A stretch of 64,000 nt of DNA from Candidatus Eiseniibacteriota bacterium (GTDB lineage: Bacteria; Eisenbacteria; RBG-16-71-46). The stretch spans positions 32,001-96,000 of the forward strand of contig JBGAML010000009.1 of assembly GCA_044223005.1 (NCBI GenBank), given 5' to 3'. Numbering within the stretch: the first letter of the stretch is position 1; the number at the start of each line of letters is the position of its first letter. The notes under the pieces are model-generated. The model did no database searches. It was not told the origin of the DNA and saw only the letters and a program-made list of their open reading frames with translations. This document shows, piece after piece, positions 7,049-22,913 of the stretch. Made by a program: the position numbers and the translations under genes.

Positions 7049-7837
7049 CTAGTCGAGCACCACGAAACGCGCGATCCGCGCCTCGGCGCCGCTCTGGGCG
7101 CGGGCGAAGTAGACGCCGCTCGGCGCGCGGCCGCCGGCCTCGGTGCGCAGGTCCCACGCGAGCTCGCGCGTGCCGGGCTTGGCGCCCGCCTCCAGCGTAC
7201 GCACCCGGCGGCCGTCGAGCGCATAGATCGCCACGCGCGCCGGCGCCCCGCCGGCGGGCAGCGCGAGCCGGAAGCGCGCCTCGTGCCGCGCCGGGCTCTC
7301 GCCCGCGAGCGCGAACGCCAGCGCGTTCGCCGCGGCGGGCGAGACGTCGGCGGGCGGCTGCGTCACGGTGATCGAGCCGTTGGTCACCGCCACGGTCGGC
7401 GTGCCGTCGTTGAAGATGAGGTGGTGGAAGGTGAGCGGCATGACCGTGCCCCACGCGGCCTTGGGCGCGATCACGACTTTCACCGTATTGAGCAGCGTCG
7501 AGCTGGACGAGATCGCGTCGGGGCCCGTGGTGGCCGCGGCGAGGAACGAGCTCGTGCCGCTGACGAACGGGGGCCCCCAGAACTGCAGGAACCCGTCCGC
7601 CTGCGAGCTCGAGTAGGCGACGACGGCCGGGTTGAACGCCAGCCGCATGTCGATCGAGAGGATCCCGAGCCCCGCGGGCGCGGGGGAGACGGTGATCGGG
7701 ATCGTCACCTGCGTGCCGGGCGGGCCGCTCACGTTGGGCAGCGTGACGTTGAGGTCGGCGGCGGCGCACACGAGCGGTGCGGCGAGGCCGAACGCGAGCC
7801 AGGCGGCGGCACGGCGGAGCGGGAACGGACGAAGCAT
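7049..7837 (-). CDS. Secreted single cohesin-like domain plus FlgD-Ig/T9SS-like CTD (262 aa)
   Basis: Signal peptide; VTLPNVSGPPGTQVTIPITV...GILSIDMRLAFNPAV...LIFNDGTP cohesin-like pattern resembling the modules at 20819-22888; DGRRVR...WD...SGVYFAR tail. Confidence 0.7.
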   Translation of the reverse strand: MLRPFPLRRAAAWLAFGLAAPLVCAAADLNVTLPNVSGPPGTQVTIPITVSPAPAGLGILSIDMRLAFNPAVVAYSSSQADGFLQFWGPPFVSGTSSFLAAATTGPDAISSSSTLLNTVKVVIAPKAAWGTVMPLTFHHLIFNDGTPTVAVTNGSITVTQPPADVSPAAANALAFALAGESPARHEARFRLALPAGGAPARVAIYALDGRRVRTLEAGAKPGTRELAWDLRTEAGGRAPSGVYFARAQSGAEARIARFVVLD

Positions 7838-8043: not shown

Positions 8044-9270
8044 TCAGCGGCGGCGCGTCTCGCGGACGGGCGCGAGCCCGCCCAGGAACGCGACGAACGC
8101 GAGCGCCAGCGCGAGCCACGCGATCGGCAGGGCCGGCCTCGTGCGCAGGTCGAGCATCACGACGTGCGCGGTCGAGGCGTTGGCGAGCTGCGGCAGCATC
8201 AGCCCGACGCGGCCGTTGTCGGCGTCGAACGCGGCCGCGGCGATGGGGCCGAAGCCCTTCGCCGTCGCGGCGAACGGGAGTTCGCCCGTGGCCGTCGCGA
8301 TCATGCCGGGCGAGACTTTCTCGATCCCGGCGGCCGTCTTCACCTCGAGGTCGGCGTACATGCGGATCGAGTCGGTCTGCTCGATCCGGAAGCCGACGAA
8401 CGTGACCGTCGCGCCGGGGGCCTCGAGCGATTCCTTCTTCTTCAGCCACTGGAGCTCGTGCGGATTCTGCCGGCGCAGCTGCATGGCGAGCGGCACCAGC
8501 ACGGGGCCCGAGAAGGGCCGCGCGTCCGCGATCGATTCCAGTTCCCGGCCCGGCACGCCCACGAGCTGGACCTGCATCGGCACGGTGTCGCGGCCCGCGG
8601 CCACGCGGACGTGCATCACCACGTGCGCGCTGTCGGCCTGCTCCACCTTCGCGAGCGCGAGGTGGTGCCCGAGCGTGTCGGCGGGCGTGTCCTCGGTGAT
8701 GCCGATGGCCGTCGCGCGCGGCCCCGTGAGCGCGAGCATCACGCACACGGCGAACGCGCCCATCGCGCACGCCTGCGCGAGCAGGGGCATCTGCCCCGGG
8801 CGGCGGCTGGCGCGGAACGCCAGCGTGATCGCGGTGCCGAGCACGAGCCCGCCGAGCGCGACGCCGGCGAGCGCCATGGGGGCGCGCACGCGCGTGAAGA
8901 ACGTGACCGCGCCGAGCAGGCCGGCGAGCGTGACGCCGGGCAGCAGCGCGCCGATCGCGCCCAGTGGCGCGAGCCGCAACGCGCTCCACGCCGGCAGCAG
9001 CGCGACGCAGGCCGCGACGGCGGCGATCAGCGCCGACAGGACGCGCGGATCCTCGCTCGAGCCGTCGCGATGCACGATCGCCGAGCGCAGGGGGAGGAGC
9101 GAGGGGAACGCGATCGACGCGAGCAGCACGCCGGCGCCCAGGATGAGGAACAGCGAACCGATGCGCCGGGGGCCGCGGCGGCTTTCGCCGGCACCCACCG
9201 CCAGGAAGATGGCGGCGAGCGCGAACAACGCCCAGGTGAGCGGGTCGATCCAGTCGAGTGTGGGTTTCAT
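8044..9270 (-). CDS. Polytopic membrane protein (408 aa) resembling the C-terminal half of cytochrome c synthetase CcmF
   Basis: GAGG RBS before ATG 9270; several TM helices, a large soluble beta-rich domain (LKKKES...VTFVGF), then RPALPIAWL plus a final TM like the CcmF KPxxxxIW end; no WxWD motif. Confidence 0.5.
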   Translation of the reverse strand: MKPTLDWIDPLTWALFALAAIFLAVGAGESRRGPRRIGSLFLILGAGVLLASIAFPSLLPLRSAIVHRDGSSEDPRVLSALIAAVAACVALLPAWSALRLAPLGAIGALLPGVTLAGLLGAVTFFTRVRAPMALAGVALGGLVLGTAITLAFRASRRPGQMPLLAQACAMGAFAVCVMLALTGPRATAIGITEDTPADTLGHHLALAKVEQADSAHVVMHVRVAAGRDTVPMQVQLVGVPGRELESIADARPFSGPVLVPLAMQLRRQNPHELQWLKKKESLEAPGATVTFVGFRIEQTDSIRMYADLEVKTAAGIEKVSPGMIATATGELPFAATAKGFGPIAAAAFDADNGRVGLMLPQLANASTAHVVMLDLRTRPALPIAWLALALAFVAFLGGLAPVRETRRR

Positions 9271-9566
9271 GGGTGACCTCCGCGGCCGGGAAGAGCCAGT
9301 TCCATGCCGTTGCAGCCGGTGAGCGATACGCCCCCGGGCGCGTTCCCGCAAGCTCGCTCGGGCCGCCGGGGCGGCTCGCTTCCTTCGCATTGGCCGTCAT
9401 TTCCGGCGCTCGGCCGCCGGGGTCAGAGGACCGTCAGTATGTCAGGAGAAGGTCGCCCATCCTGCCGCTCTGGCAGCATTCTCCATCGGGACGAATCTAT
9501 TTCGGCAATACGTCAAGTTGCGGTGGCGTCGCAACGGACTGGACCCCAAGGCGTTATCCAACCGGT

Positions 9567-9586
9567 TCTCCGTAGTACTACGGAGA
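9567..9586. promoter_or_regulatory. Perfect 20-bp palindrome (candidate operator)
   Basis: tctccgtagtactacggaga is its own reverse complement; extends to 9562-9591 with one mismatched pair. Confidence 0.6.
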
Positions 9587-9591
9587 TCCGG

Positions 9592-9608
9592 CTGGCACGC
9601 GGGTTGTA
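9592..9608 (+). promoter_or_regulatory. Sigma54-like -24/-12 promoter upstream of cytochrome cluster
   Basis: CTGGCACGCGGGTTGTA versus consensus YTGGCACG-N4-TTGCW (one mismatch at -12). Confidence 0.55.
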
Positions 9609-9680
9609 TTGTTCTTTCACGAACAACCCCGTGACAGTAGGCTCTCGTCACGGTTCGAGCAGCCGAATCGGGAGGCAACC

Positions 9681-10700
9681 ATGGCCCTTCAGCGCAGGAA
9701 TCCCGGAGTCGCGGCGACCCGCCGCCGCTTGCCGGTATTCGCGCTTTTCGGCTGCCTCCTCGCCGCGGTGACGCTCCCGGTCACGGTGCGCGGCTCCGCC
9801 GACACGACCTCGACGGCCGACGACGCCGTGCAGGTCGACTCGGCCCTGGTCCAGGACGTCGCCAACGGCGGGGGGCCGTTCGAGCAGCCCTGCGGCGTCA
9901 CATTCGACCGCGCGGCCAACGAGATCGTCGTCGCGAACACGGGCGCCGGCCGGATCGAGTTCTTCGGCAAGGACGGCCAGCCGCACGGGTTCTTCGTGCA
10001 CCGCGTCGTCGATTCGCTCGGCGTCGAGCGCGACGGCCTGCCGCGCCACGTCGTGATGGACGCGCACGGCCGCCTGCTCGTCGTGGACGCGTACGCGGCG
10101 TACATCGACGTGTGCGATTTCCGCGGCCAGAGCCTCGCGCGCATCGCGCTCCCGGCGCCCGACAACACGGCGCTCAACGGTTTCGGCCCCGGCCCCATCG
10201 CGGTCGCGCCCGACGGCCGGATCATCGTCGCCTCGCGCCACAAGACGGGGCCCATCCACGTGCTCGACGCCGATGGCAAGCCGCTCGCGCAGTGGGGCAC
10301 CGCCGGCACCGAGCCCGGGCAGCTGCGCGCCGTCTCGGGCGTCGCGGTCGCGCCGAACGGCGAGATCGTCGTCGTGTGCGTGCTGACCGAAATCGCCGTG
10401 CAGATCTTCGATGCGAACGGAAAGTACCTGCGGGGCTTTGGCCCGCATGACATCGGACCGGGGCGGTTCTCGGTCCCGAACGGCATCACCATCACGCCGG
10501 ATTCCCGCATCTGGGTCTCCGACATGATGCGGCACAACGTTCAGGTGTTCGATCCAACCGGGAAGCTGGTGGGGGTCGTGGGTGGTGCGGAAGGCCCCGG
10601 TGATCTGTTCTACCCGAGCGCCCTGGCGAGCGATGGCAGTGGGATGTTCGCCACTGTCGAGACGGGCGGGAATCTGTTGCGGTTGTTGTGGATTCGCTGA
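9681..10700 (+). CDS. Exported NHL-repeat beta-propeller protein (339 aa)
   Basis: GGAGG RBS before ATG 9681; N-terminal hydrophobic segment; FEQPCGV, FSVPNGITITPDSRIWVSD, VQVFDPTG, LFYPSALA NHL repeats. Confidence 0.85.
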   Translation: MALQRRNPGVAATRRRLPVFALFGCLLAAVTLPVTVRGSADTTSTADDAVQVDSALVQDVANGGGPFEQPCGVTFDRAANEIVVANTGAGRIEFFGKDGQPHGFFVHRVVDSLGVERDGLPRHVVMDAHGRLLVVDAYAAYIDVCDFRGQSLARIALPAPDNTALNGFGPGPIAVAPDGRIIVASRHKTGPIHVLDADGKPLAQWGTAGTEPGQLRAVSGVAVAPNGEIVVVCVLTEIAVQIFDANGKYLRGFGPHDIGPGRFSVPNGITITPDSRIWVSDMMRHNVQVFDPTGKLVGVVGGAEGPGDLFYPSALASDGSGMFATVETGGNLLRLLWIR

Positions 10701-10810
10701 CCGCCAGGACGTGGGCTGGACCCGAAGGAGGTGACATCTCTCGTCGTAGTACCAGAACCACCGAGTAGTTCTTCCACCGAATCCCTTCCAAACGATATTC
10801 GAGGTGAACC

Positions 10811-11860
10811 ATGAAACGCCTGACCATCCTCCTGACCGCCGTGATGCTGTCTGGGGCGGCGGCGTTGGCCGTCGCGGGTGATTTCCACTTCGGCACGACG
10901 CTCGTCTGTTCGGACTGCCACGTGGCCCACTACAGCCAGCAGCACGGCTACTCCGTCGGCGGCTTCGTCGTGCCGATGGGCGGCGCCGGTCCGTACACCG
11001 ACCTGCTCCGTGACGATGAGAACAAGGTCTGCCTGACGTGCCACAACGGCTCGTCGTTCGCGCCGGACGTGTTCGGCGCCGACGGAAGCGGCTCCGGCAT
11101 CCTGCGCGAAGCGGGCGGCCTGAACGTCGCGGCCGGCCACGGCCTCACCAACGACGCGGGCTACGACGACATCAACGGCCACACGCTCTACTCGATGGCG
11201 ACGCCTCCGGGCGGCAACACGAGCGCGTACGTGCCGAACGCCGAAGGCCTCCGTTGCATCGACTGCCACGCGCAGCACGGCACGGCGAACTACCGCAACC
11301 TGCTCAACCGCGGCATCTTCGCGGGCGACACGGTCTCCTACGCGGTCGGCACCAACGACCTCACGAAGGACGTGTTCGAGCGTTCGGCGGCGGCGTATGC
11401 CGAGGCCGACGTGGACTTCAACGAGCCCAACACCCGCCAGAGCCGTTATGGCCAGTGGTGCAAGGCCTGCCACAAGGACTTCCACGGCCAGGGCGGCGAC
11501 GTGAACATGGGCGGCCAGGCCGGCGGCGTCACGTCGACCAATGCCAACCCGTGGAAGCGTCACCCGGTCGCCGACGTCAACATCGGCGAGTCCGGCCCGA
11601 CCGCGACGTTCATCTCCAACCTCGCGCGCTACACGGCCGTCACCAACAAGGTGAAGGTCATGAGCTCGACGGGCACGTGGGTCGGCAACGAGACGGTGCT
11701 CACGCCGTCGTGCTTCTCGTGCCACAAGGCTCACGGCAACAAGAACGCCTTCGGCCTGATCTACATGAAGGGCGCGACGCCCGCGGGAACGCGGACCGAG
11801 GAAGGCGACGGCGGCGTGTACAAGGACCTGTGCCGTCAGTGCCACAGCCAGGGTGCCTGA
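10811..11860 (+). CDS. Secreted hexaheme c-type cytochrome, OmcS-like (349 aa)
   Basis: Sec signal peptide; 6 CxxCH motifs (CSDCH, CLTCH, CIDCH, CKACH, CFSCH, CRQCH); N-terminal FHx6CxxCHxxH and WCxxCHxDxH...RHP...CxSCHxAH...LCxxCH layout as in OmcS. Confidence 0.85.
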   Translation: MKRLTILLTAVMLSGAAALAVAGDFHFGTTLVCSDCHVAHYSQQHGYSVGGFVVPMGGAGPYTDLLRDDENKVCLTCHNGSSFAPDVFGADGSGSGILREAGGLNVAAGHGLTNDAGYDDINGHTLYSMATPPGGNTSAYVPNAEGLRCIDCHAQHGTANYRNLLNRGIFAGDTVSYAVGTNDLTKDVFERSAAAYAEADVDFNEPNTRQSRYGQWCKACHKDFHGQGGDVNMGGQAGGVTSTNANPWKRHPVADVNIGESGPTATFISNLARYTAVTNKVKVMSSTGTWVGNETVLTPSCFSCHKAHGNKNAFGLIYMKGATPAGTRTEEGDGGVYKDLCRQCHSQGA

Positions 11861-11905
11861 TCGGACCTGACGCGAACTGACCGCTCCTCCGGGAGAGGTC
11901 GGATG

Positions 11906-11938
11906 GGGGCGGCACGGATCACCGATCCGTGCCGCCCC
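11906..11938 (+). terminator. 15-bp-stem hairpin after hexaheme gene (partial terminator or mRNA 3' stabiliser)
   Basis: ggggcggcacggatc-acc-gatccgtgccgcccc; no U tract. Confidence 0.55.
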
Positions 11939-12027
11939 GTCGCGGCTCGAGCGATACAGTACGATTCGATGGGCCGATCGATGTAGGCAACCTGCTGCAC
12001 CAAATTGAAGAGAAGAAAGGACCCTCC

Positions 12028-13485
12028 GTGATCGAGTCGCCTCTCCATCCAGGCCTCGCGTCCGCAAGGTTCCCGGCGCGCTCGCGCATCGTCCCCACTC
12101 TTGCACGCGTGGTTCTGCTCACCGCCCTGGTGCTGGGCGCCGCCTCCGCGGCCCCGCGGGGGCTCCGCGTGCCCCGCGATTCCGACGCCATCCGCAAGGC
12201 GCTCGCGGTGGGACCGCACGCCGGCGACTGCGAGCAGTGCCACACGCAGCACGGCGACGAGCAGATCGACACGTATCCCAACGCGCTGACGAGCCCCAAC
12301 GACAACGCGCTCTGCGCGCGCTGCCACGCGACGCCGTGGAGCGGCGAGAGCTTCGGCGGCGATCCGCTCTATCGCGGCACCGGTCACGGCTCGAGCACAC
12401 GCATGGTCTGGCCGGGGCCCGAGCCGCCGATGCGGGTCGAGTTCGACGCGGCCACGAAGTGCGTCAACTGCCACGATCCGCACGGGTGGAGCGACGCCCA
12501 GGGCGAAGTGCCGCAACTCGGCCTGCAGCGCGAGGAGAAGCTCTGCCTCGGGTGCCACGACGGCAATCCCGCGGGGACCGACATCGCCGCGGACCTGCGC
12601 AAGCCCTACCGCCACCCGGTCACCGACTTCACGGGCCGCCATACGGGGCCCAACGAGACGCAGCCGTCCGACTTCGGGGCGGTACCGCTCGCGAATCGCC
12701 ACTCCGAATGCGAGGACTGCCACAATCCGCACGTCTCGCGCGCCGACCAGTCGATCCCGAACGCGGACGCCTCCAAGCTCGTGCTGGGCGTCAGCCGCGT
12801 CTCGGTGCTCAACGGACCGGCGGGCACGCCGCCCGTCTACACGTTCATCCCCGCGTCCGATACGCTCACCGCGCCGAACGCCGAGTACCAGCTCTGCTTC
12901 AAGTGCCATTCCGCGTGGACGACGCAGCCCTCCGGGCAGACCGATCTCGGCATGGTGCTCAATCCGGCCAATCCGTCCTACCACCCGGTCGAGGACGTGG
13001 GCCGCAACCCGAACATCGCGCCCGAGTCGTTCGCGCCCGGCTGGAACGCGAACTCGATCACGCGCTGCGGCTCGTGCCACGGCTCGGACTTCGGCGGTGC
13101 CGCGGGCCCGCACGGATCCACGAACCAGTACCTGCTGCGCGCGCCCTACCCGGTCGTGCTCGCCTCGCGACACATGAGCTCGAACGAGATCTGCTTCTCG
13201 TGCCACAACGTCGACACTTACGCGAACCCGAGCGCGCTGCCGTCCGTGCGCGCGGGGTCGCGCTTCAATGCGCCGGGGGCGGCGCACGGGCACGCCGAGC
13301 ACGTCTACCAGGACAACGTGCCGTGCAATGTCTGCCACGTGACGCACGGTTCGACCACGCAGCCGTTCCTGCTCGTGACGGGCCGCACGCCGGGCATCAC
13401 CTCGTACACGCAGACGCCGACGGGAGGGACGTGCACGACGACGTGTCACTCCGCGGCGAGCTACACGGTCCTCTATGCGCGCTGA
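12028..13485 (+). CDS. Multiheme c-type cytochrome (9 CxxCH plus 1 CxxxCH), doubled-CXXCH type
   Basis: AAGGA RBS before GTG 12028 (in frame with ORF 11929); hydrophobic signal; CEQCH, CARCH, CVNCH, CLGCH, CEDCH, CFKCH, CGSCH, CFSCH, CNVCH, CTTTCH. Confidence 0.9.
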   Translation: MIESPLHPGLASARFPARSRIVPTLARVVLLTALVLGAASAAPRGLRVPRDSDAIRKALAVGPHAGDCEQCHTQHGDEQIDTYPNALTSPNDNALCARCHATPWSGESFGGDPLYRGTGHGSSTRMVWPGPEPPMRVEFDAATKCVNCHDPHGWSDAQGEVPQLGLQREEKLCLGCHDGNPAGTDIAADLRKPYRHPVTDFTGRHTGPNETQPSDFGAVPLANRHSECEDCHNPHVSRADQSIPNADASKLVLGVSRVSVLNGPAGTPPVYTFIPASDTLTAPNAEYQLCFKCHSAWTTQPSGQTDLGMVLNPANPSYHPVEDVGRNPNIAPESFAPGWNANSITRCGSCHGSDFGGAAGPHGSTNQYLLRAPYPVVLASRHMSSNEICFSCHNVDTYANPSALPSVRAGSRFNAPGAAHGHAEHVYQDNVPCNVCHVTHGSTTQPFLLVTGRTPGITSYTQTPTGGTCTTTCHSAASYTVLYAR

Positions 13486-15202
13486 CCGCACGCTGCCGGC
13501 GGCGCTCCGCGCGAGCGCGACGATCGCGGCCCTGCTGTGCGGGTTCGCGGCCGCCGCGCGCGCCGAGGGCGTCTACGGCACCGTGCAGGTGCAGTACCAG
13601 AAGGCGGACATCTTCCAGACGCTTCTGGTGGGGGACAGCCTCACGTACACGCAGAAGAACAGCAGCGAGCTCTGGGTGAAGTCGGTCGACATGCACCACC
13701 AGGACTACCTCCGGCCCGACCTCATGCTGGAGTCCAACTTCCGCTTCTCCGACCAGTCGCGCCCCGACAACGGCACGCTGCAGCGCACGCCCTACGGCAG
13801 CATGCGGCTGCTGCACCCTTGGTTCCAGGTGCTGCTCTCGCACCAGCCCTCGATGCAGCGCGCGTCGCTCTCGGCGCAGAGCGGGCTCAACCCCGACTCG
13901 CTCACGCGGCGCAACGTGACCACGCACAACACCGAGTCGATGCTGAACGGTCACATCGGCGTCCCGCGCTGGCCGCAGCTCGACCTCGCGTGGACGCGCC
14001 GACGCCGCGACGGCGCCGGCGCGTCGGGCGAGCGCAACGACGCCCGCAGCGTCCGCGCGACGTTCGACCGCGAGCGCTACTCCGCGTACGGCGGCGTGAC
14101 CGACCAGCGCGTGTCGGCGGGCACGCCGGGCACCCACCCGAGCTCGCAGCAGGTTTGGAACGGCGGTGCGAGCGTTCGCGTGACGCCCATGCGCGCCGCG
14201 TCGCTGACCGCGCAGTACGACATGACCGACGTGACCGGGCGGACGTTCCAGGGGCCCCGCCCGCAGACGATCAGCCACTCCGCCACCGTGACCGGCGACT
14301 GGCGGCCGGCGCCGCGCTGGTCGACGAACCTCAACTACGCGTTCCGTCACGTGGACTTCGGCATCGTCGGCAACCCGCCGCAGAACGATCACGAGGGCTC
14401 GCTGCTCGAGCGCTGGAACTGGTCCAAGGCGGCGAGCCTGCTGGGCGGTGGCGGCCTGCACACGGTGCGCCTGACCAACGCCGGCGGCGGCACGACGCCC
14501 CGGCTCCAGGAGTACCTGACGGCCGTCGCGCTGCTCGACGCCCGCGTGCGTCCGCACTGGACTGTCGCCGGCAGCCTGAGCCACACGACCAACTTCGACC
14601 CCGACCGCTCTCCCTACGGCGTCCAGACCCTCGGCGGAACGACCCGGGCGCAGCTCTCGCGCCGGCTCCAGTTCGACGCCACGATGCAGCTCTCCCAGAA
14701 CGGGGACACCGCCTCGGCCTCGCAGCGGTTCTCGAACTCCTGGGCCGCGCGCCTGCAGGGGCAGGCGTTGCGGAACCTGATGCTGGCCGGATCCCTGCGG
14801 AGCACCCGCATCGGGACCGGTCTCTTCCGCGCCACGAGCGTCACGCGCGGGATCGCGGGCGACCTCAACTGGCGCCCGGTGCCCACGCTGCAACTCGTCG
14901 GAAGTTATGCTAGGAACACCATCCTGCCGGCCTCGACGGGCCGGAATTCCAGCCGCTCGCTGTCGGCCCGCTTCGAGCCGACCAGCCACTGGCAATGGTA
15001 CGGTAGTTGGACCCGTACCGATCAGCGGGTGTTCGCGAGCGCTGCGGGACAGCTTTCGAGCCGGGAGGTCGTCTCGACCCGGTTGCAGTACGCGCCGAGC
15101 CGCCGGTTGGCGGCCAGCGTGGGCACCACGATCAGCGAGCCCGGCCGGTCCGACGAATCGCGGCAGCTGGATGCGGCCCTCACCTGGAGCTTCGGACGAT
15201 GA
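13475..15202 (+). CDS. Probable outer-membrane beta-barrel protein (575 aa)
   Basis: Signal peptide ending ARA; alternating amphipathic strands rich in S/T/R/W/Y; C-terminal LDAALTWSF strand. Confidence 0.7.
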   Translation: MRADRTLPAALRASATIAALLCGFAAAARAEGVYGTVQVQYQKADIFQTLLVGDSLTYTQKNSSELWVKSVDMHHQDYLRPDLMLESNFRFSDQSRPDNGTLQRTPYGSMRLLHPWFQVLLSHQPSMQRASLSAQSGLNPDSLTRRNVTTHNTESMLNGHIGVPRWPQLDLAWTRRRRDGAGASGERNDARSVRATFDRERYSAYGGVTDQRVSAGTPGTHPSSQQVWNGGASVRVTPMRAASLTAQYDMTDVTGRTFQGPRPQTISHSATVTGDWRPAPRWSTNLNYAFRHVDFGIVGNPPQNDHEGSLLERWNWSKAASLLGGGGLHTVRLTNAGGGTTPRLQEYLTAVALLDARVRPHWTVAGSLSHTTNFDPDRSPYGVQTLGGTTRAQLSRRLQFDATMQLSQNGDTASASQRFSNSWAARLQGQALRNLMLAGSLRSTRIGTGLFRATSVTRGIAGDLNWRPVPTLQLVGSYARNTILPASTGRNSSRSLSARFEPTSHWQWYGSWTRTDQRVFASAAGQLSSREVVSTRLQYAPSRRLAASVGTTISEPGRSDESRQLDAALTWSFGR

Positions 15203-15801
15203 GTCTCTCGCAGCCCTTACTCGGTCCCGCACGTTTCGGCGCGTTGGTCGCACTCGCCGCCGTCCTCGCGGGCTGCGCGCCGTCCCCCCGGCTGTTCGTC
15301 AACCGGCAGGCCGACATGACCCTCTACAAGAAGGTGATCGTCGTGCCGTTCGCCAACATGAGCGGGGAGGGATACGCGTCGGGCCGCGTGACGCGCGCGT
15401 TCTCGACCGAGCTCGTGATCGCCGACCGCTTCCAGCTCGTGGACACGTCGCTCCTGCTCGGCGAACTCGAGAAGGCGAGCGTGCGCCCGGACGCGACGGG
15501 ACAGATCGACCTCAACAAGCTCCGCGATGCCGCGACCAAGCTCGAGGCGACCGCGATCATCCGCGGCGTCGTCACCGAGTACGGCACGCACCGGGCCGGC
15601 CAGGACGAGTTCCCGGTCGTGAGCTTCGACTGCGAGATGGTCGACGTGCAGACGGGCATCATCATCTGGCGCATGTCGATCAGCGAGTCCGGCAAGGGCC
15701 GGCTCCCGATCGTGGGCGGTTCGGGCGAGCGCACGTTCTCGCGCGTCACCGAGGAGGCCTGCCAGCACGCCGTGGCGCTGCTGCGGGCGAAGATCCTGTG
15801 A
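15199..15801 (+). CDS. Lipoprotein, CsgG/GNA1162-like fold (200 aa)
   Basis: ATGA overlap; lipobox LAGC; KVIVVPFANMS...FQLVD...AIIRGVVTEYG...VDVQTGIIIW pattern. Confidence 0.75.
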   Translation: MSLSQPLLGPARFGALVALAAVLAGCAPSPRLFVNRQADMTLYKKVIVVPFANMSGEGYASGRVTRAFSTELVIADRFQLVDTSLLLGELEKASVRPDATGQIDLNKLRDAATKLEATAIIRGVVTEYGTHRAGQDEFPVVSFDCEMVDVQTGIIIWRMSISESGKGRLPIVGGSGERTFSRVTEEACQHAVALLRAKIL

Positions 15802-16400
15802 TTCGCGGCCGCCGACTCCTCGCGGCCTTCGCGCTGCTCGTGCTCGCAATCGCGGGCTCGGGCTGCGCCGCCGGCGCGTCCCACGTGGCCCCGAACGCCA
15901 CCGGCGCCCGCGACGTGATCGTCGTGCTGCCGCTCGAGAACCTCTCGGGCCGCGCCGAATACGGCGAGCGCTTCTCGCGCATGACCTGGACCACGGTTGG
16001 CCAGGACAGCCGGTTCGAGGTGGTGGATCCGGGGCAGGTGGACGCGACGCTCGTCGAGCTGCGCATCCGCTCCGCCGGCGCGCTCACCACCGACCAGATC
16101 ACTCGCGCCGCCGCCAAGCTGCACGCGCGCTGGGTGCTGGCCGGCACGCTGCTCGAATCGGGCTCTTCGCGCACGCCGGACGGCGAGGTGCCCACGTTCT
16201 CGCTGGCGCTGCGCCTGCTCGACGGGCGCACCGGCCGCGTCGCGTGGACCGACCTGCGCGCGCGCAGCGGCGAGGACCGCGAAACCGTCTTCGGCTGGGG
16301 ACGTGAGAGCAATCTCGAGCGTCTCGCCCAGTCGACGATTCAGACGTTGGTGCAGAACATCCGAATCCCCGCGACCCCCGACTCCCTCGAGGGAAAGTAG
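15798..16400 (+). CDS. Second CsgG/GNA1162-like lipoprotein (200 aa)
   Basis: GTGA overlap; lipobox-like GSGC; IVVLPLENLS...FEVVD...VLAGTLLE...LLDGRTGRVAW; paralogous pattern to the upstream gene. Confidence 0.75.
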   Translation: MIRGRRLLAAFALLVLAIAGSGCAAGASHVAPNATGARDVIVVLPLENLSGRAEYGERFSRMTWTTVGQDSRFEVVDPGQVDATLVELRIRSAGALTTDQITRAAAKLHARWVLAGTLLESGSSRTPDGEVPTFSLALRLLDGRTGRVAWTDLRARSGEDRETVFGWGRESNLERLAQSTIQTLVQNIRIPATPDSLEGK

Positions 16401-16404
16401 CCAT

Positions 16405-16911
16405 ATGAACTTCCGACGCGTCGTCCTCGCCAGTCTCGTCGTTCTCGCACTCCCGCTCGCCGCCCGCGCCGCCGCGCCCGCCGCACCCGCGCCCGCGACC
16501 AGCGCCGCACCGGCGCAGCTCAAGAGCGTGACGCTGCACATCTTCAACCGCGTCTTCCCGGACTTCCACGACAAGGTCGAGGCCGTGCCGAACAAGGAGT
16601 TCCGCGTCGGCGACAGCGAGTACACCGCCAAGATCGTGCGCTTCGTGCCGGACTTCGACATGGACATCAAGGCGCACAAGGTCGTGAGCCGCTCCGGTGA
16701 GCCGCGCAACCCGGCCTTCCGCATCGCGGTCAAGAAGAACGGCGCGTCGATCGACACGAGCTGGGCGTTCTTCAACCTGCCGCCGCACTTCGGACCCCGC
16801 AACGTGCTCGCGTTCGTGGCGACCAACATCACGTTCACCAACCGGCCCGCCATGGCGAGCAAGGATTCGCTGGCGATCAAGATCCAGCAGCACGAGGGAG
16901 CGACGCATTGA
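16405..16911 (+). CDS. Exported protein, DUF2155-like (168 aa)
   Basis: Signal peptide and Ala/Pro linker; FVPDF...SRSGEPRNPAFRIAV...SWAF motif. Confidence 0.55.
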   Translation: MNFRRVVLASLVVLALPLAARAAAPAAPAPATSAAPAQLKSVTLHIFNRVFPDFHDKVEAVPNKEFRVGDSEYTAKIVRFVPDFDMDIKAHKVVSRSGEPRNPAFRIAVKKNGASIDTSWAFFNLPPHFGPRNVLAFVATNITFTNRPAMASKDSLAIKIQQHEGATH

Positions 16912-19900
16912 ACGCACGCTGGTGGTTCCCCCGCGCGTTCGCGGCCCTGGCCGCGACGCTGTTCGTCCTCGGCGTGGTGGTGTCCTCGGGCGCCGCGGGC
17001 CGCTCGAACGGGCCGGCGCGCGAGTGCTACGACTGCCACCAGAAATCCAAGGCCGAGTTCGGCAAGAAGAAGTTCATCCACGCGCCGATCAAGAAGGCCG
17101 ACTGCGCGAGCTGCCATGCGAGCCACGGCTTCTCGCAGAAGCTGGTGCTCGCGAAGCCGTCCGAGGAGCTGTGCATCGGCTGCCACGCGGACGTGATCAA
17201 GGCCACGACGGCGCCGCACCAGCACCCGGCGTTCAAGCGCGGTGACTGTCTCGCGTGCCACGATCCGCACGCGACCGACCGCCCGCACCTCGTGCGCGAC
17301 GACACGCCGCAGAACTGCTTCAACTGCCACACGTCGGCCAAGGCCGAGGCGGCCACCGCGCACGTGCACGAACCGTTCGCGAAGGGCGATTGCACGGCCT
17401 GCCACGCCTCGCATGCGGGCACGACGGCGGCGCTGCTCAAGCGGACCGACGACGGCCTGTGCACGGGCTGCCACGCCCTGGCGCAGATGGACGCCAAGCA
17501 CACGGGCAAGGGCCGCGGCGGCCTGCAGTGCCTCGATTGCCATTCGCCGCACGGCAGCGCGAAGGCCGGCCTGCTCCGCGCCGCGTCGCACCAGCCGGTC
17601 GCCGAGGGCAGCTGCGATGCCTGCCACGTGATGGAGGGCGGCAAGCCGACGGCCAAGCTGCAGGCGAGCAAGACCGAACTCTGCCAGACGTGCCACGAGG
17701 ACATGGCCAAGCTGTCGGCGCGCAAGCATCCGCACCAGCCGGCGGCCGAGGGCGAGTGCCTCGAGTGCCACGATCCGCACCGCAGCACGGCGGCGGGCTC
17801 GCTGCTCAAGGCGTCACCGAGCGAGCTCTGCATCGGCTGCCACGAGGACCTGAAGGCCGAACTCAAGAAGCCGGTCGTCCACAAGGCGTTCTCCGAAGGT
17901 CACTGCGCCGCCTGCCACGATCCGCACGGCTCGGACCAGGACCACATGATGAAGACGCCGGACGGCTCGGTGTGCCTCAAGTGCCACAAGGACGTCGAGC
18001 ACGACATCGCCGACGCCAAGGGCGCGCACCCGCCGGCCCTGCGCAAGGACTGCCTGCGCTGCCACGTCGCGCACTCGGGCACCGAGCACGCGCTGCTGCG
18101 GCAGCCGGAGAAGGTGCTGTGCGAGACCTGCCACGCGGCGACGGCCAAGAAGCTGGACGGCAAGACCAAGCACGCGCCGTTCGCGTCGGGTGACTGCGGC
18201 AACTGCCACTCGCCGCACGGTTCGCCGCAGCCGCACCTGGTGAAGGCGAACGACGGCGCGCTGTGCCTGGGCTGCCATGGCGACATGCAGCGCGAGTTCG
18301 CGCGCGAACACGTGCACCCGGGCCCGAAGGAAGGCCGCTGCCTGAGCTGCCACGCGCCGCACGGCGGCGAGGGCAAGGGCATGCTGGCGCGTCCGCCGGC
18401 CGAGCTCTGCGGCGGCTGCCACGCGCCGATCGCCAAGCGCATCGCCTCGACGGGAGCGCACTCGGCCGCGAAGCAGGGCAAGTGCGAAGCGTGCCACGAG
18501 CCGCACGGCTCGAAGGCGAAGTCGCTGCTGCGCGGCACGACCAAGCAGCTCTGCGCGAGCTGCCATCCGGACGTCGGCCACGGCGACAAGGTGCACCAGC
18601 CGGTCGCGGACGGGGACTGCCTCACGTGCCACGACGCGCACGGCGGCCCGGCGGCTCCGGCGCTCGCCAAGGCGGTGCCGGCGCTGTGCACGGACTGCCA
18701 CGACGGGACGGCGTCGGACATGAAGTCGAAGCACCGCGGCAGCGACGTGTCGAACGCGAACTGCCTCGGCTGCCACTCCGCGCACGAATCGAAGTCGGCG
18801 GCGCTGCAGCCGGCGGTGGTGCATCCGGGATTCGCCGAGGGCAAGTGCGAGAAGTGCCATTCGGGCGCCTCGCCCTCCAAGGCGAACCTGCTCGCGCCGG
18901 GCGGCGCGCTGTGCGTGCGCTGCCACGACGTGTCCAAGGTGAAGACGGCGGGCGACCACATCCACGACCCGGTGAAGAAGCTGCAGTGCCTGACCTGCCA
19001 CGCGCCGCACGCGTCGGCCCAGCCGAAGCTGCTGGTGGCGAAGTCGGACCAGCTCTGCGCGTCCTGCCACAAGGAGACGTCGGGAGCGGGGCAGCGGAAG
19101 TTCCCGCACGCTCCGGTCGCGAACGGCGAGTGCAGCAAGTGCCACGAGCCGCATCGCGCGCCGGGCGGCGGCATCGCGCTGCTCAAGAAGCGTCCGGGCG
19201 AGATGTGCGGCGACTGCCACCAGGACCTGGCGAAGCGGATCGCGGCGGGCAACGCGCACGCGCCGGCGGCCCGTGGCCAGTGCCTGACCTGCCACGACAG
19301 CCACGGCTCTGACCTGCCGGGCATGACGCGCCGCCCGGGCAGCGCGCTCTGCGCGGCGTGCCACAAGCTCGACGATCCGAAGCTGACGGCGAAGCATCCG
19401 GGGATGTCGATGGCGACGGTCAACTGCATCAGCTGCCACGACCCGCACGCGCAGGACAAGACGAGCAAGGCGCTGCTCCGGCCGGCGATCCACCTGCCGT
19501 TCTCGCGCGGCGAATGCGAGTCCTGCCACACGTCGAAGGGCAGCGCGAAGCTGCAGGCGACGGGGGCGGAGCTCTGCGTGACCTGCCACGAATCGGGTGG
19601 CTGGAAGGGCCGCAAGTACACGCACCAGCCAGTGACGAACGGCCCGCAGTGCCTGAACTGCCACGCGCCCCACGGTGGCGTGGCGCGCCCGATCCTGAAG
19701 GCGGCGGGTGACGAACTCTGCTTCGGCTGCCACGACCGCGCGATGGTCGAGGGCAAGGTGAAGCACAAGGCGCTCGAGAAGGGCTGCGTGAGCTGCCACG
19801 ACGCGCACGGCTCGGCGGATCCGGGAATGCTGAAGGCGGCCTCGGTCGACGATCTCTGCCGCAAGTGCCACACGGACCTCGCGAAGCACTACCACAAGAC

Positions 19901-20057
19901 GTCGAGCGAACGCCTGGACCCGTCGGGCAAGCCGCTCCGCTGCACGAGCTGTCACAACCCGCACTCGGCGCCGTTCGACGCGCTCCTCAACCACGACGCG
20001 AAACGCGACCTCTGCGTCCAATGCCACGACCCGGCCCAGATGCCCGGCGGCAAGTGA
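16908..20057 (+). CDS. Giant multiheme cytochrome c with 42 CxxCH motifs (1049 aa)
   Basis: TTGA overlap with GAGGGAG RBS; signal peptide; hand count of 42 CxxCH in HxP...CxxCHxPH...LL...LCxxCH doubled units. Confidence 0.95.
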   Translation: MNARWWFPRAFAALAATLFVLGVVVSSGAAGRSNGPARECYDCHQKSKAEFGKKKFIHAPIKKADCASCHASHGFSQKLVLAKPSEELCIGCHADVIKATTAPHQHPAFKRGDCLACHDPHATDRPHLVRDDTPQNCFNCHTSAKAEAATAHVHEPFAKGDCTACHASHAGTTAALLKRTDDGLCTGCHALAQMDAKHTGKGRGGLQCLDCHSPHGSAKAGLLRAASHQPVAEGSCDACHVMEGGKPTAKLQASKTELCQTCHEDMAKLSARKHPHQPAAEGECLECHDPHRSTAAGSLLKASPSELCIGCHEDLKAELKKPVVHKAFSEGHCAACHDPHGSDQDHMMKTPDGSVCLKCHKDVEHDIADAKGAHPPALRKDCLRCHVAHSGTEHALLRQPEKVLCETCHAATAKKLDGKTKHAPFASGDCGNCHSPHGSPQPHLVKANDGALCLGCHGDMQREFAREHVHPGPKEGRCLSCHAPHGGEGKGMLARPPAELCGGCHAPIAKRIASTGAHSAAKQGKCEACHEPHGSKAKSLLRGTTKQLCASCHPDVGHGDKVHQPVADGDCLTCHDAHGGPAAPALAKAVPALCTDCHDGTASDMKSKHRGSDVSNANCLGCHSAHESKSAALQPAVVHPGFAEGKCEKCHSGASPSKANLLAPGGALCVRCHDVSKVKTAGDHIHDPVKKLQCLTCHAPHASAQPKLLVAKSDQLCASCHKETSGAGQRKFPHAPVANGECSKCHEPHRAPGGGIALLKKRPGEMCGDCHQDLAKRIAAGNAHAPAARGQCLTCHDSHGSDLPGMTRRPGSALCAACHKLDDPKLTAKHPGMSMATVNCISCHDPHAQDKTSKALLRPAIHLPFSRGECESCHTSKGSAKLQATGAELCVTCHESGGWKGRKYTHQPVTNGPQCLNCHAPHGGVARPILKAAGDELCFGCHDRAMVEGKVKHKALEKGCVSCHDAHGSADPGMLKAASVDDLCRKCHTDLAKHYHKTSSERLDPSGKPLRCTSCHNPHSAPFDALLNHDAKRDLCVQCHDPAQMPGGK

Positions 20058-20087
20058 CCGCGACGCACTGACGTCCCGCAACGCACG

Positions 20088-20119
20088 ACGGCCACCGTTC
20101 CCCGGAACGGTGGCCGTTT
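20088..20119 (+). terminator. Terminator ending the cytochrome cluster
   Basis: acggccaccgttc-cccg-gaacggtggccgt followed by tt. Confidence 0.7.
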
Positions 20120-20136
20120 CGCGGCTCGGGAGGCTC

Positions 20137-20185
20137 ACTGCTCGAGAACGTGACGTCGCTCTACTGCTCGAGAGCGTGACGTCGC
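20137..20185. repeat. Tandem 23-bp direct repeat (2 copies)
   Basis: actgctcgagaacgtgacgtcgc (20137-20159) and actgctcgagagcgtgacgtcgc (20163-20185), 1 mismatch. Confidence 0.8.
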
Positions 20186-20364
20186 ACCGCCCCCCCCGGT
20201 CCGAGGCGGCCGGGGGACCGCTGAAGGGACCGCTCCTCGTCCGGCATCCTGCCGGACTCGTCACTAGGCGTCCGCATGCGACCGCCATCCCTGGCTCCTT
20301 CGCATGCTCCCGACTTCCCTTCATCGGCCCCCCGGCCGCCTCGGACCTGCCGCCCCACCACTTC
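20180..20364 (-). repeat. Structured element copy A (150-nt core 20198-20347); candidate ncRNA or MITE
   Basis: Reverse complement of copy B with 16 differences in the 150-nt core; self-complementary ends and two internal hairpins. Strand inferred from G-U wobbles. Confidence 0.8.
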
Positions 20365-20510
20365 ACTGCGCATTGGCTGCAGGCTCTGGCGCGCGCGTCA
20401 TCGCAGCGATCGGGGCTCACCAGTGCGCATGCCGACCGCATCGTCGCACCTGTCGCGCGCTGTACCTCGGCGCATCAGCGAAGCGGCGGTGCTTGCCTGC
20501 AGCCGATTCC

Positions 20511-20696
20511 GAAGTGGGGGTGGGGACGCAGGTCCGAGGTGCCCGGGGGTCCGATGGAGGGAAGTCGGGAGCGAGCGAAGGAGCCAGGGATGGCGGTCGC
20601 TCGCGTACGCCTAGTGACGAGCACGGCAGGATGCCGTGCGAGGAGCGGTCCCTCCAGCGGACCCCCGGGCGCCTCGGACCGGGGGGCGGTGCGACG
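20511..20696 (+). repeat. Structured element copy B (150-nt core 20531-20680); candidate ncRNA or MITE
   Basis: Inverted copy of A; hairpins gcca-ggga-tggc and gcacggca-gga-tgccgtgc inside a long outer stem. Confidence 0.8.
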
Positions 20697-20766
20697 CCGC
20701 GCTCTCGGGTGGTTCTGAATCGAGGTGCGCCCTCAGCGAGAACATCAGCCCATGACCGCAAACGCA

Positions 20767-20796
20767 ACGGGCCGCCTCGGTTGCGAGGCGGCCCGT
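20767..20796 (-). terminator. Terminator ending the cohesin/dockerin operon
   Basis: acgggccgcctcg-gttg-cgaggcggcccgt; TGCGTTT follows on the minus strand. Confidence 0.65.
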
Positions 20797-20818
20797 CGAG
20801 GGTGTGCAGGAAGCTGCG

Positions 20819-22888
20819 TCAGGGCATGTAGGTCAGTTTCTGCGTTGCGATGCGGCCCTGGTGCTCGAGGCGGGTGAAGTAGAGGCCTGCCGGGACGAGG
20901 TGGCCCGTGTCGTCGCGGCCGTTCCAGGTGGACTCGTGCGGGCCCGGGGCGAACGGGCCGTCGGCCAGGGTGCGGATGCGGCGGCCGTCGAGGCCGAAGA
21001 TCGCCAGCTGCACGCGGCCGCCCTGCGTCCCGATCGAGAACGGGATCCGGATGCCGTCACCGCGGGCCGGGTTCGGTTCGCTCGTGCGCAGTGCGAACTC
21101 CGCCGTCGTCCCGACCGGAGGCGCGTCCGCGCTCGACAACACGTGAACCGTTCCGTTCACGATCTGCGGAATCGGCGAGCCCTCGTTGAAGACCAGCCGT
21201 GCGAGCGACACCGTGATGTTCGTGCCCGACGGCGCCGACGGCGAGATCACCAGGTTCACCGAGCCCAGCAGCGTGCTCGTGTTCGGCAGCGTCGCCACGC
21301 CGCCCGCGGCGCAGTCCAGTTCCGTGAGGCCGTTGTCGAAGTGCGACTGGATGTTGCCCAGGCCCCACGAACTCCAGAGGCCCGAGGGCGACGCGACGCC
21401 GTTCGTGATGTTCGCGCCCGTCCAGTCGATCGCGAACTGCATCGAGTAGATGTTGAGCGAACCCACCGTGCGATCCGACGTGATCGGCAGGATCACCGTC
21501 GAGCCCGGAGGCGCGTTCACGGAGCCCAGCGTCACCTTGAGATCGTAGATCGTCAGGTTGTTCGTGTAGTCGACCGAGCCGTTCGCGTCCTGCACCCGCA
21601 CGCGCGTCACGCCGCCCTTCACCGCCGTGAGCAGGCCGGTGGGGGAGATCGTGGCCAACGTCGGATCCTCGACCGACCACGTGAGCGGAGCCGTTGCGCC
21701 GCTCACCGTGTATTGCTGCGTCTGGCCCGCGAGCAGCGTCACGTTGTCGGGGGACGCGAAGATCGTCGGGAGCGCACCGACGGAGAAGAAGCCGTTGGTC
21801 GCCTTGGCCGGCATCGTCTCGTTGAAGACCGGGTTGACGAACGTCAGGCTCGAAGACCCGGCACTCGTGGGCGATGCCTGCAGGTTCAGGTAGCACAGGA
21901 TGCCCGAACCCGAGAGGTCCGTGCTGCCGGTGAAATCCACCGAGCAGCCATTCGACGTGGCCGCGGCAAAGATCGGGCCCCAGCCGTTGAGCAGCGTGCC
22001 CGGCGGCGCCGTCACGCTGACGAAGCTCGCGACGTTCGTGCCCCACGTGAGGCTGAACTGGCCGCTGCGGATGCCGAGTCCGGTGAGCGACGTCACGGTG
22101 ATCGGGATCGCGAGCGGCTGGCCCACGAGCACGTTGACCGTCGTCGAGGTGATGCCCATGCCACGGATCAGCACCGTGCCCGTCGTGGTGCTGGCGTGAA
22201 GCGCGGCATCGGTGGCCGTGACCGTCACCGCGCCCGGCGCGACGCCCGTGAGCAGGCCCGAACTCGAGATGGTGGCGATCGCCGGGTTCGACGTGCTCCA
22301 CGTGACCGGATTGGTGACGCTGCCGCTGACGTTGAACTGCAGCGTCTGGCCGCGGATCACCTCGCCGAGGTCGGGGTAGACGTCGATCTGGGGCGTCACG
22401 TTGATCGTGATCGAGCCCGTCGTGGTGGTCACCGTCGGCGAGCCCTCGTTGAACTTGAAGTTCGAGAGCGTGAGCGACGTGCTGCCGCCGTTCAGCAGGG
22501 CCGGGTTGAGCAGGAAGCTGACCCGCACCATCGAGCCCGCGCCCGTCAGCGGCGTGGTGCCGGCGTCGCTCACCGTCACCTTACCCGTGTTGCTGACGGA
22601 GGAGACGAAGAACTGCGGGGTCTGCCAGCCGGCGGTGCCGGCGAGCGTGCCCGTGTTGATCACGTCGACGGCGGTCACCTGTGAGCTGTTGTAGCTGAGG
22701 TCGAACTGCAGGGACAGGATGCCCTGTCCGGTCACGTCCGCGGTGTTGATGTCGATGTTGACCGTCTGCCCGGCCAGCCCGTTTCCGGTGCCGACCGAGA
22801 CCGCGACGGCTCGGGCCGTGCCGGTGCCGGCGGCCGTGGCCGCCAGCACCAGCAGGAACCCCAGCGCCCAGGCGCGAAGTCGGAGCAT
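20819..22888 (-). CDS. Scaffoldin-like secreted protein: cohesin-Big2-cohesin-Big2-cohesin-FlgD/T9SS-like CTD (689 aa)
   Basis: GAGGAGGA RBS; signal peptide; three modules with G+xSxQF...FNE(G/T)xP; two xTWS...xATISxxGLLTxV Ig group-2 repeats; DGRRIR...WNGRDDTG...AGLYF tail. Confidence 0.8.
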   Translation of the reverse strand: MLRLRAWALGFLLVLAATAAGTGTARAVAVSVGTGNGLAGQTVNIDINTADVTGQGILSLQFDLSYNSSQVTAVDVINTGTLAGTAGWQTPQFFVSSVSNTGKVTVSDAGTTPLTGAGSMVRVSFLLNPALLNGGSTSLTLSNFKFNEGSPTVTTTTGSITINVTPQIDVYPDLGEVIRGQTLQFNVSGSVTNPVTWSTSNPAIATISSSGLLTGVAPGAVTVTATDAALHASTTTGTVLIRGMGITSTTVNVLVGQPLAIPITVTSLTGLGIRSGQFSLTWGTNVASFVSVTAPPGTLLNGWGPIFAAATSNGCSVDFTGSTDLSGSGILCYLNLQASPTSAGSSSLTFVNPVFNETMPAKATNGFFSVGALPTIFASPDNVTLLAGQTQQYTVSGATAPLTWSVEDPTLATISPTGLLTAVKGGVTRVRVQDANGSVDYTNNLTIYDLKVTLGSVNAPPGSTVILPITSDRTVGSLNIYSMQFAIDWTGANITNGVASPSGLWSSWGLGNIQSHFDNGLTELDCAAGGVATLPNTSTLLGSVNLVISPSAPSGTNITVSLARLVFNEGSPIPQIVNGTVHVLSSADAPPVGTTAEFALRTSEPNPARGDGIRIPFSIGTQGGRVQLAIFGLDGRRIRTLADGPFAPGPHESTWNGRDDTGHLVPAGLYFTRLEHQGRIATQKLTYMP

Positions 22889-22913
22889 GGATTCGTCCTC
22901 CTCGTCGCGCCGG

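Follow-up and report, generated by a model that had tools for sequence, protein, structure and literature searches.

Does a heme-rich gene cluster in a bacterium outside Geobacter encode an OmcS-type filament together with the means to export and wire it, and is such a cluster a new kind of system or a version of one already described? The question is raised by eight genes in a 64,000-nucleotide stretch of Candidatus Eiseniibacteriota bacterium (GenBank assembly GCA_044223005.1, contig JBGAML010000009.1, positions 32,001 to 96,000 of the forward strand; hereafter the window), which an earlier note, made from the letters alone, had described as a complete, self-contained and novel OmcS-like nanowire and export cluster. 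Judged from its sequence, the cluster is a version of osc (omcS-companion), a system already published: it is related, in rearranged form, to the genes with which Geobacter is reported to build conductive OmcS cytochrome filaments. We regard it as a variant rather than a new kind because six of the eight genes match the neighbours of true OmcS genes in order. The eight genes are as follows.

9681..10700, + strand: exported NHL-repeat beta-propeller (Pfam NHL, E 1.1e-12)
10811..11860, + strand: OmcS-like hexaheme cytochrome of 349 amino acids (aa) with a Sec-type leader (profile, fold and histidine register)
12028..13485, + strand: 10-heme cytochrome (nine CxxCH and one CxxxCH by motif count), candidate barrel partner
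13475..15202, + strand: predicted outer-membrane beta-barrel, OscE slot; about 28 strands and no plug domain in the AlphaFold2 model (predicted local distance difference test, pLDDT, 90.3)
15199..15801, + strand: lipoprotein 1, PelC/LpoB-type single domain, OscF slot (PDB matches, lipobox cysteine)
15798..16400, + strand: lipoprotein 2, fold as lipoprotein 1, OscG slot (profile matches, lipobox cysteine)
16405..16911, + strand: small exported protein, free-standing relative of a domain that occurs within ResB-type cytochrome c biogenesis proteins, in the slot of a peptidyl-prolyl isomerase (PPIase) (profile matches)
16908..20057, + strand: 42-heme exported cytochrome, OscI/OscJ slot (motif count, hhalign)

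The layout described earlier stood up well. All eight open reading frames (ORFs) are + strand genes that fall within 9681–20057, and the heme tally of 57 CxxCH motifs and one CxxxCH is correct (six in the hexaheme, nine plus one in the 10-heme cytochrome and 42 in the giant), as are the junctions (an 11-nucleotide overlap at 13475/13485, ATGA at 15199–15202, GTGA at 15798–15801, a 4-nucleotide gap at 16400/16405 and TTGA at 16908–16911). This motif density is far above chance, since the ORFs of at least 100 aa in all six frames of the window hold a single further CxxCH outside the cluster. The start codon of the 10-heme gene was picked from an upstream purine-rich site and is putative.

As a canonical reference with true OmcS genes we used 33 taxonomically unassigned metagenome loci fetched by an OmcS motif, which stand in for G. 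sulfurreducens; Osc letters were given by gene order. The hexaheme of one of these loci (L107) matches OmcS (PDB 6EF8) at E 5.8e-193. The canonical order runs from an NHL gene and a hexaheme gene, through a spermidine-synthase-like gene and a paralogue that may or may not be present, to a YncE-type propeller, a barrel, a short lipoprotein, a two-domain lipoprotein, a SurA-type PPIase and a large multiheme cytochrome. It agrees with the osc operon (PMC13194489) and with the eight-gene block GSU2500–2493 (PMC12977616). Within the osc operon, OscH is assigned to folding, OscEFG to secretion and OscD to morphology, and oscI and oscJ are GSU2495 and GSU2494 (PMC13194489).

In a grid of profile–profile comparisons (hhalign) of the eight window genes with nine canonical ones, six genes matched their positional partners: the NHL propeller, paired with the NHL gene that precedes omcS (99.9% over 276 columns), the hexaheme (99.7% over 281 columns against OmcS-type proteins), the barrel (95.6%), the two lipoproteins (99.9% and 99.6%) and the 42-heme cytochrome, paired with the multiheme that follows the PPIase (100% over 400 columns). 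The barrel and both lipoproteins are, in addition, reciprocal best domains with the genes in the canonical OscEFG slots. The 10-heme cytochrome gave heme-motif matches only and no full-length match, and the small protein matched none of the canonical genes. Synteny with the omcS neighbourhood, which had been proposed as a check, therefore holds for six of eight genes in these metagenome loci, with the order preserved.

The window cluster and the osc system thus share an NHL gene, an OmcS-like hexaheme, a large barrel, two lipoproteins and a very large multiheme in the same order, as well as a link to sigma54 (through GSU2506 in Geobacter). By contrast, the window cluster has one hexaheme gene and no spermidine-synthase-like gene, its barrel is 575 aa long rather than about 665–754 aa, its lipoprotein 2 has a single domain, its 26-heme and 16-heme parts are fused, and a ccmF gene adjoins the operon. 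Two slots also differ in content: the 10-heme gene stands before the barrel in place of the YncE-type propeller of the OscD slot, and the ResB-type domain gene takes the place of the SurA-type PPIase of the OscH slot (present in L091, L096 and L102), neither of which was found in the cluster. The description of the cluster as complete fails on these two absences, and because of them we file it as a variant that would be osc-like in its working. Elsewhere in the genome, only partial propeller matches and two weak partial PPIase matches turned up, in a search that did not recover even the barrel of the window, so that the two genes may still be present outside the cluster. The claim of novelty was also too strong, as the system is already in print as osc. 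Shen et al. (2025; Cell Chem Biol 32:239) reportedly described this machinery in G. sulfurreducens, from omcS to GSU2493, under a title said to call it widespread and ancient.

The OmcS homology of the hexaheme is borne out by profile, fold and histidine register, which agree. A profile built from the best 120 of 630 homologues found OmcS (6EF8) at E 2.4e-7, its sole PDB match below 0.001. With the AlphaFold2 model of the hexaheme (pLDDT 83.8), Foldseek placed 6EF8 first (E 2.7e-4, again the sole PDB match at E < 0.001), and a fold search over 48,161 representatives did the same (Z 11.7, 253 residues aligned, root-mean-square deviation (rmsd) 4.1; runner-up Z 5.1). The protein carries six CxxCH motifs behind a hydrophobic leader that by inspection ends in A-V-A, and its mature chain, like that of the OmcS subunit (PDB 6EF8/6NEF), begins just ahead of the first heme.

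Of the twelve histidine ligands that OmcS needs, its own chain supplies eleven and the adjoining subunit the last (PMC6584659). In a joint alignment of the window hexaheme with 112 six-heme representatives (310–445 aa, from 150 listed) and 23 full-length OmcS-type six-heme proteins, exactly six non-motif histidines (26, 40, 124, 156, 251 and 308) are common to all 23 OmcS-type proteins and to 108–112 of the 112 family members. Twelve histidines of the hexaheme thus fall in register with the OmcS type, including one three residues past the histidine of the first motif. His40 corresponds to His16 of OmcS, which we take to be the ligand borrowed between subunits. His225 is shared with 14 of the 23 OmcS-type proteins, whereas an extra histidine at position 45, present in 90 of the 112 family members, occurs in none of the 23. 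The hexaheme therefore resembles OmcS in fold, in the order of its six CxxCH motifs and in twelve aligned histidines; OmcS is a subunit that polymerises, and the hexaheme is the probable major (filament) subunit. Lipobox cysteines were found in none of the cluster cytochromes, and for this reason sequence alone does not place them outside the cell.

Some related loci vary this part of the cluster. Three (L055, L066 and L071, from Armatimonadetes- and Zixibacteria-titled records) hold at least two close hexaheme paralogues in tandem, and four others (L059, L074, L075 and L079) have two or three NHL genes and, ahead of the barrel, a 12-heme protein of about 700 aa that partly matches the hexaheme profile, as a fusion of two OmcS-like units would; P0269 shares the shape of this variant.

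The barrel belongs to no Pfam family that we could find. Foldseek ranked MtrB (6R2Q_B) first at E 1e-10, and a second fold search did so too (Z 15.7, 417 residues aligned, rmsd 7.9), with FhaC tied at 14.8. Downstream of it, lipoprotein 1 keeps its Cys26 in 97% of 58 alignment rows and lipoprotein 2 its Cys23 in all 56. The two had been called CsgG-like, a label that the comparisons overturn: the nearest structures are of the PelC type (for lipoprotein 1, 5T11, 5T10, PelC 9H80 and 5T0Z, with GNA1162 and LpoB also matched), and none of the 12 matched PDB sequences is a CsgG chain. Among 37 lipoprotein members, Pfam found LpoB in 28, GNA1162 in ten and CsgG in eight, the last being a different branch of the same clan. 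Lipoprotein 2 has roughly half the length of the canonical two-domain protein, and its best profile matches are the N-terminal domains of proteins of 375–411 aa. With PelC-type structures ranking first and CsgG missing from the 12 matches, a periplasmic ring under the barrel seems likelier than a CsgG-type pore. PelB/PelC (9H80, 5T10, 5T11 and 5T0Z) likewise combines single-domain lipoproteins with an adjoining barrel gene, and we take the 12 chains in 9H80 and 5T11 to be a ring. The cluster differs from that system in having two distinct lipoproteins, a far larger barrel and cytochrome neighbours, and in lacking polysaccharide genes.

The gene before the barrel is tightly tied to it: of the 39 loci in which the pair occurs, 38 place the barrel start codon 11 nucleotides ahead of the 10-heme stop. 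The 10-heme profile found no close solved relative (best PDB match E 0.004, with no MtrA chain among 14 matches), and against the DmsE/MtrA family TIGR03508 the protein scores 41.1 bits, the cut-off being 192.2, which places it outside the family. In more distant loci the slot is filled by a related 6-heme protein (hhalign 99.7%) or a 12-heme protein. A predicted complex of barrel and 10-heme cytochrome scored 0.48, compared with 0.00 for the best of three controls, which lends weak support to a pairing; the runs gave 0.01, 0.48 and 0.68, with contact agreement between runs of at least 0% and a partner pLDDT of at least 73. Of 157 solved complexes, 116 attained the mark, as did two of 215 mismatches; at scores of 0.60 or less, however, only 18 of the 157 did so, along with both mismatches. 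Since MtrAB has already been solved, the pass may reflect likeness to it. The cluster resembles MtrAB (PDB 6R2Q) in having a large plug-less barrel encoded after a 10-heme gene with coupled translation. It differs in its barrel of about 28 strands, where MtrB has 26, in a 10-heme cytochrome outside DmsE/MtrA, in having no MtrC-type gene and in the added ring-type lipoproteins.

The small protein has no Pfam family and no PDB match, and its profile matches an internal stretch of longer proteins (E 2e-17 to 1.5e-9, 11 class genomes). All seven proteins tested that carry such a stretch (six from class genomes and one from L058) are Pfam ResB, and the three neighbouring genes tested beside ResB proteins encode cytochrome c assembly proteins. 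It may therefore act as a maturation or folding helper in the PPIase slot. A likeness to DUF2155 is only a lead: none of 24 relatives matches PF09923, and atlas neighbours at 0.79–0.80 carry DUF2155 in 13–32% of their members. Kinship with the half-length CcmF described below was rejected (hhalign just 1.2%).

At the end of the cluster, exactly 42 motifs recur in 43 of 46 related ORFs with at least 35 motifs. In L046 and L063 the counterpart is split into proteins of 26 and 16 hemes; the L063 pair maps best to residues 10–651 and 655–1044 of the 42-heme cytochrome, and the 16-heme protein of L046 ties at three places because of repeats. In Geobacter, GSU2494 has 16 hemes and GSU2495 has 26. 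The 42-heme protein is probably the product of a fusion between a 26-heme and a 16-heme partner.

Three signals around the genes can be placed as follows.

9593..9607, + strand: sigma54-like (−24/−12) site upstream of the NHL gene (10/11 against the consensus)
11906..11938, + strand: 15-bp GC-rich stem-loop after the hexaheme stop, without a U tail (z −4.88)
20087..20118, + strand: 14-bp hairpin closing the cluster, with a weak U tail (z −3.66)

Measured against the sigma54 consensus, and with an imperfect −12 element in the window copy, a sigma54-like site of at least 9/11 occurs in 28 of the 36 loci that match NHL strongly and extend far enough upstream, and in three and two of 36 in two controls. 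Before the hexaheme there is no such site (best 6/11), and a scan found no sigma70-type promoter. The genome contains rpoN, and GSU2506 is listed as a sigma54-dependent regulator (PMC10599522). The NHL leader (9540–9680) folds into three hairpins (z −3.78), one of them over the sigma54-like site, with no Rfam match; indeed no Rfam family was found in 9200–20900.

Stems of at least 9 bp within 90 nucleotides after the hexaheme occur in 53 of 77 loci, with sequences that vary between loci. The controls gave two of 69 after the NHL gene, and, in coding DNA, one of 35 after the barrel, five of 58 after lipoprotein 2 and 14 of 39 after the 10-heme gene; shuffled sequences gave about 7%. This conserved hairpin, a probable mRNA-stabilising or attenuating element, would fit a subunit made in excess. 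It is stronger than the closing one and had previously been overlooked. Of the single terminator said to close the cluster, the 14-bp hairpin is real, with stems of at least 9 bp at the cluster end in 16 of 45 relatives; its U tail is poor and the terminator scan did not call it. Identical contigs from RNA libraries (four runs of one study labelled sludge metagenome) span about 10570–11900 and cover the hexaheme gene, which speaks to presence only, as contigs cannot give starts, ends, strand or level. Among the 32 of 198 pieces listed, all from that study, no long identical piece covers the genes past the hairpin, and those of three runs begin near 10570–10580; we draw nothing from either.

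The host and its relatives bear on how far the system extends. No match to rpoB was found in the assembly, which is rated 99.3% complete (probably an assembly gap), and RF2 and FtsK were used as markers for that reason. RF2 is 67–84% identical to that of six of 11 matched Eisenbacteria-titled genomes and 53–57% to the other five, 82% to one Verrucomicrobiia-titled genome, 56% to one Bacteroidota-titled genome and 44–54% to 11 others (one of 25 unmatched). FtsK is 76–92% identical to seven of nine Eisenbacteria-titled genomes and 49–56% to the remaining 11 of 18. The non-Geobacter, Eisenbacteria host proposed earlier is supported by this comparison, which included no Geobacter genome. Of 79 related loci kept from 162 confirmed, 35 are titled Eisenbacteria and the rest Zixibacteria, Latescibacterota, Krumholzibacteriia, Acidobacteriota, Ignavibacteria, Armatimonadetes, Gemmatimonadetes, Planctomycetota or unnamed; 31 of the 79 carry all eight genes in the window order, and many of the others end at contig ends. 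Four loci titled Verrucomicrobiia, Saccharimonadales, Bacteroidota and Hyphomicrobiales (L008, L021, L028 and L030) carry Eisenbacteria-type cluster genes, and the first of these titles is probably wrong, given an RF2 82% identical to the window's.

Across 151 sampled genomes of the class, the hexaheme occurs in 49 and the barrel in 47, and the small protein is matched strongly (E 1e-18 or better) in 45. All three occur together in 44 and none in 101, counts in which kin are not independent. Of the 50 genomes with a barrel or a hexaheme, 46 contain both, and in five of the six genomes discordant for the three genes the locus meets a contig end.

Divergent from the cluster lies one further gene of cytochrome maturation.

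8044..9270, − strand: CcmF-type heme lyase, C-terminal half only, the WWD half being absent (alignment to L038)

It aligns to residues 340–710 of the full-length CcmF of L038 (28% identity, E 7.8e-28), and five long relatives score Cytochrom_C_asm and CcmF_C. Of 28 related ORFs, 15 are full-length with WWD and 13 lack it, one of these being ended by a contig end. The half-length frame, of about 410–460 aa, is kept open in 12 related loci, and the gene may encode an accessory subunit rather than be decaying. The whole ccm operon for heme attachment lies on another contig (C30), and a candidate quinol-oxidising partner lies on contig C23, so that the cluster is not self-contained. Specifically, six relatives among the loci listed carry, after the 42-heme gene, a 13-heme/cytochrome b gene (within the locus in seven of 42 with room) that has a 61–65% match on C23, where four multihemes (9, 17, 13 and 19 motifs; C23:55343-65943) include two that end in cytochrome b-like membrane domains. 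These multiheme/cytochrome b proteins are candidate quinol-oxidising entry points.

Redox genes are plentiful in this genome, which has 33 ORFs with at least two CxxCH motifs and 291 motifs in total. They include a 49-heme exported protein apart from the cluster (C23:96858-100607, − strand), a 10-heme gene followed by a 736-aa porin-like gene (C8:33249-36489, − strand) and an alternative-complex-III-like cluster (C27:63465-71000), the last two named by resemblance, and two heme-copper oxidases on C8 and C11; the genome also has two secretins. The immediate flanks of the cluster (7049–7825, 20819–23002 and 22914–27686, all − strand) encode exported proteins that carry cohesin, Ig-like or beta-helix domains and end in a FlgD-Ig domain; membership in the cluster was ruled out for them by the opposite strand and by matches in at most ten of 79 loci.

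How might the parts work together? The account that we favour, and hold to be reasonably probable, is an osc-type system that would export an OmcS-like filament and wire it through the 10-heme and 42-heme cytochromes for extracellular electron transfer. It is based on homologies, predicted folds, gene order, co-inheritance and conserved signals, and from these we infer all the rest: how the system is assembled, where its parts sit, and the route and sense of electron flow. The operon would be driven from the sigma54-type promoter, with the hairpin past the hexaheme gene favouring the first two genes and leaving the hexaheme in excess. Sec would carry all products over the inner membrane, and Ccm would supply heme with the ResB-type domain protein assisting. 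The two PelC-like lipoproteins would form a periplasmic ring beneath the large barrel, which would export or anchor the hexaheme. Subunits would stack head to tail as in OmcS, one histidine binding the heme of the next. Electrons from quinol would enter through a multiheme/cytochrome b protein encoded elsewhere, travel along the 42-heme cytochrome and exit through the 10-heme cytochrome at the barrel.

Several observations weigh against this account. A single-sequence phmmer search of the hexaheme against the PDB did not find OmcS (one chance row, E 0.6), and the Foldseek TM-score to 6EF8 is just 0.38. Identity to the OmcS-type proteins is 22–27%, alike for all 23, which does not assign the hexaheme to OmcS proper (GSU2504) as opposed to OmcT, OscC or OmcJ, and the mature chain has about 326 residues, compared with 407 in OmcS (some 80 fewer; 54 versus 68 per heme). 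The hexaheme is on this evidence a remote, shortened OmcS relative, which low identity and missing residues probably set on a separate branch of the family. The barrel's match to its canonical counterparts is also remote, with 15% identity over 220 columns. The OscD-like and OscH-like genes that the cluster lacks are those reported for morphology and folding (PMC13194489). OmcS alone is known to form wires, the function of its close paralogues being unknown, and sequence models are said to be unable to pick true nanowires outside the genus (PMC12977616). Finally, the respiratory role of OmcS filaments is itself disputed (PMC11077965).

The same genes might build a porin–cytochrome conduit without a long filament, in which the 10-heme cytochrome occupies the barrel in the way that MtrA does MtrB, the 42-heme cytochrome feeds it and the hexaheme sits at the surface or is released as a monomer or short oligomers. 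The first fold match of the barrel to MtrB, the multiheme gene of 10, 6 or 12 hemes directly before the barrel among the loci listed, and the weak complex prediction (0.48) all suit such a conduit. We nevertheless think it unlikely: unrelated barrels match about as well as MtrB (Z 14.8 versus 15.7), the 10-heme protein falls well under the DmsE/MtrA cut-off (41 versus 192 bits), the C8 locus already offers a separate MtrAB/DmsEF-like pair, and the hexaheme retains both its six extra histidines and its downstream hairpin. Distinctly unlikely, in our judgement, is a filament whose main role is other than mineral respiration, such as electron uptake, storage over oxic–anoxic swings, cell–cell contact or biofilm structure. 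The two oxidases and the alternative-complex-III-like cluster would be at home with such a role, as would the RNA contigs from sludge, and one report found that Fe(III) oxide reduction does not require OmcS (PMC11077965); the 33 multiheme ORFs and the multiheme/cytochrome b proteins resembling those of metal reducers weigh against it.

A purely periplasmic redox system, with the barrel and lipoproteins moving something else, for instance a polysaccharide as in PelB/PelC, would account for PelC being nearest to the lipoproteins and for cytochromes without a lipobox cysteine. It is highly improbable, however, given the co-occurrence of barrel and hexaheme in the class, the presence of the same genes beside true OmcS genes and the lack of any match to polysaccharide-synthesis families among the eight. 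A hybrid of the filament and conduit schemes, not described in the papers cited here, is possible though doubtful: a compact OmcS-type filament would be founded on, and electrically joined to, a 10-heme cytochrome seated in an MtrB-like barrel. A single 42-heme wire in the periplasm would feed it, and a ResB-derived helper and CcmF partner of its own would see to maturation.

Few organisms are known to make cytochrome filaments, and the secretion, anchoring and charging of OmcS wires are described as open (PMC12307469); OmcS homologues outside Geobacter are already in print (PMC10954620). Among the literature matches listed, none that joins Eisenbacteria to OmcS, multihemes or extracellular electron transfer mentions this cluster, Eisenbacteria appear only as carriers of iron-cycling genes or Cyc2 or in a tree, and osc gene names occur only in PMC13194489.

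The window cluster reveals which parts of the osc system can be swapped, since hexaheme, barrel, lipoproteins and large multiheme are kept and propeller and PPIase are replaced. Being compact and having one hexaheme gene, it is a better choice for expression tests than the Geobacter locus, which carries paralogues. Were the hybrid scheme true, one 10-kb operon would provide an unbroken heme path from periplasm to filament and answer how OmcS-type wires are charged and anchored, and this would hold for about one-third of the genomes in a class without a named cultured model. With such a cluster present in an uncultured bacterium of the candidate phylum Eisenbacteria, electron export of the OmcS type probably reaches far beyond Geobacter. 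If the osc-type account is right, Eisenbacteria and related uncultured lineages become candidate electroactive cells.

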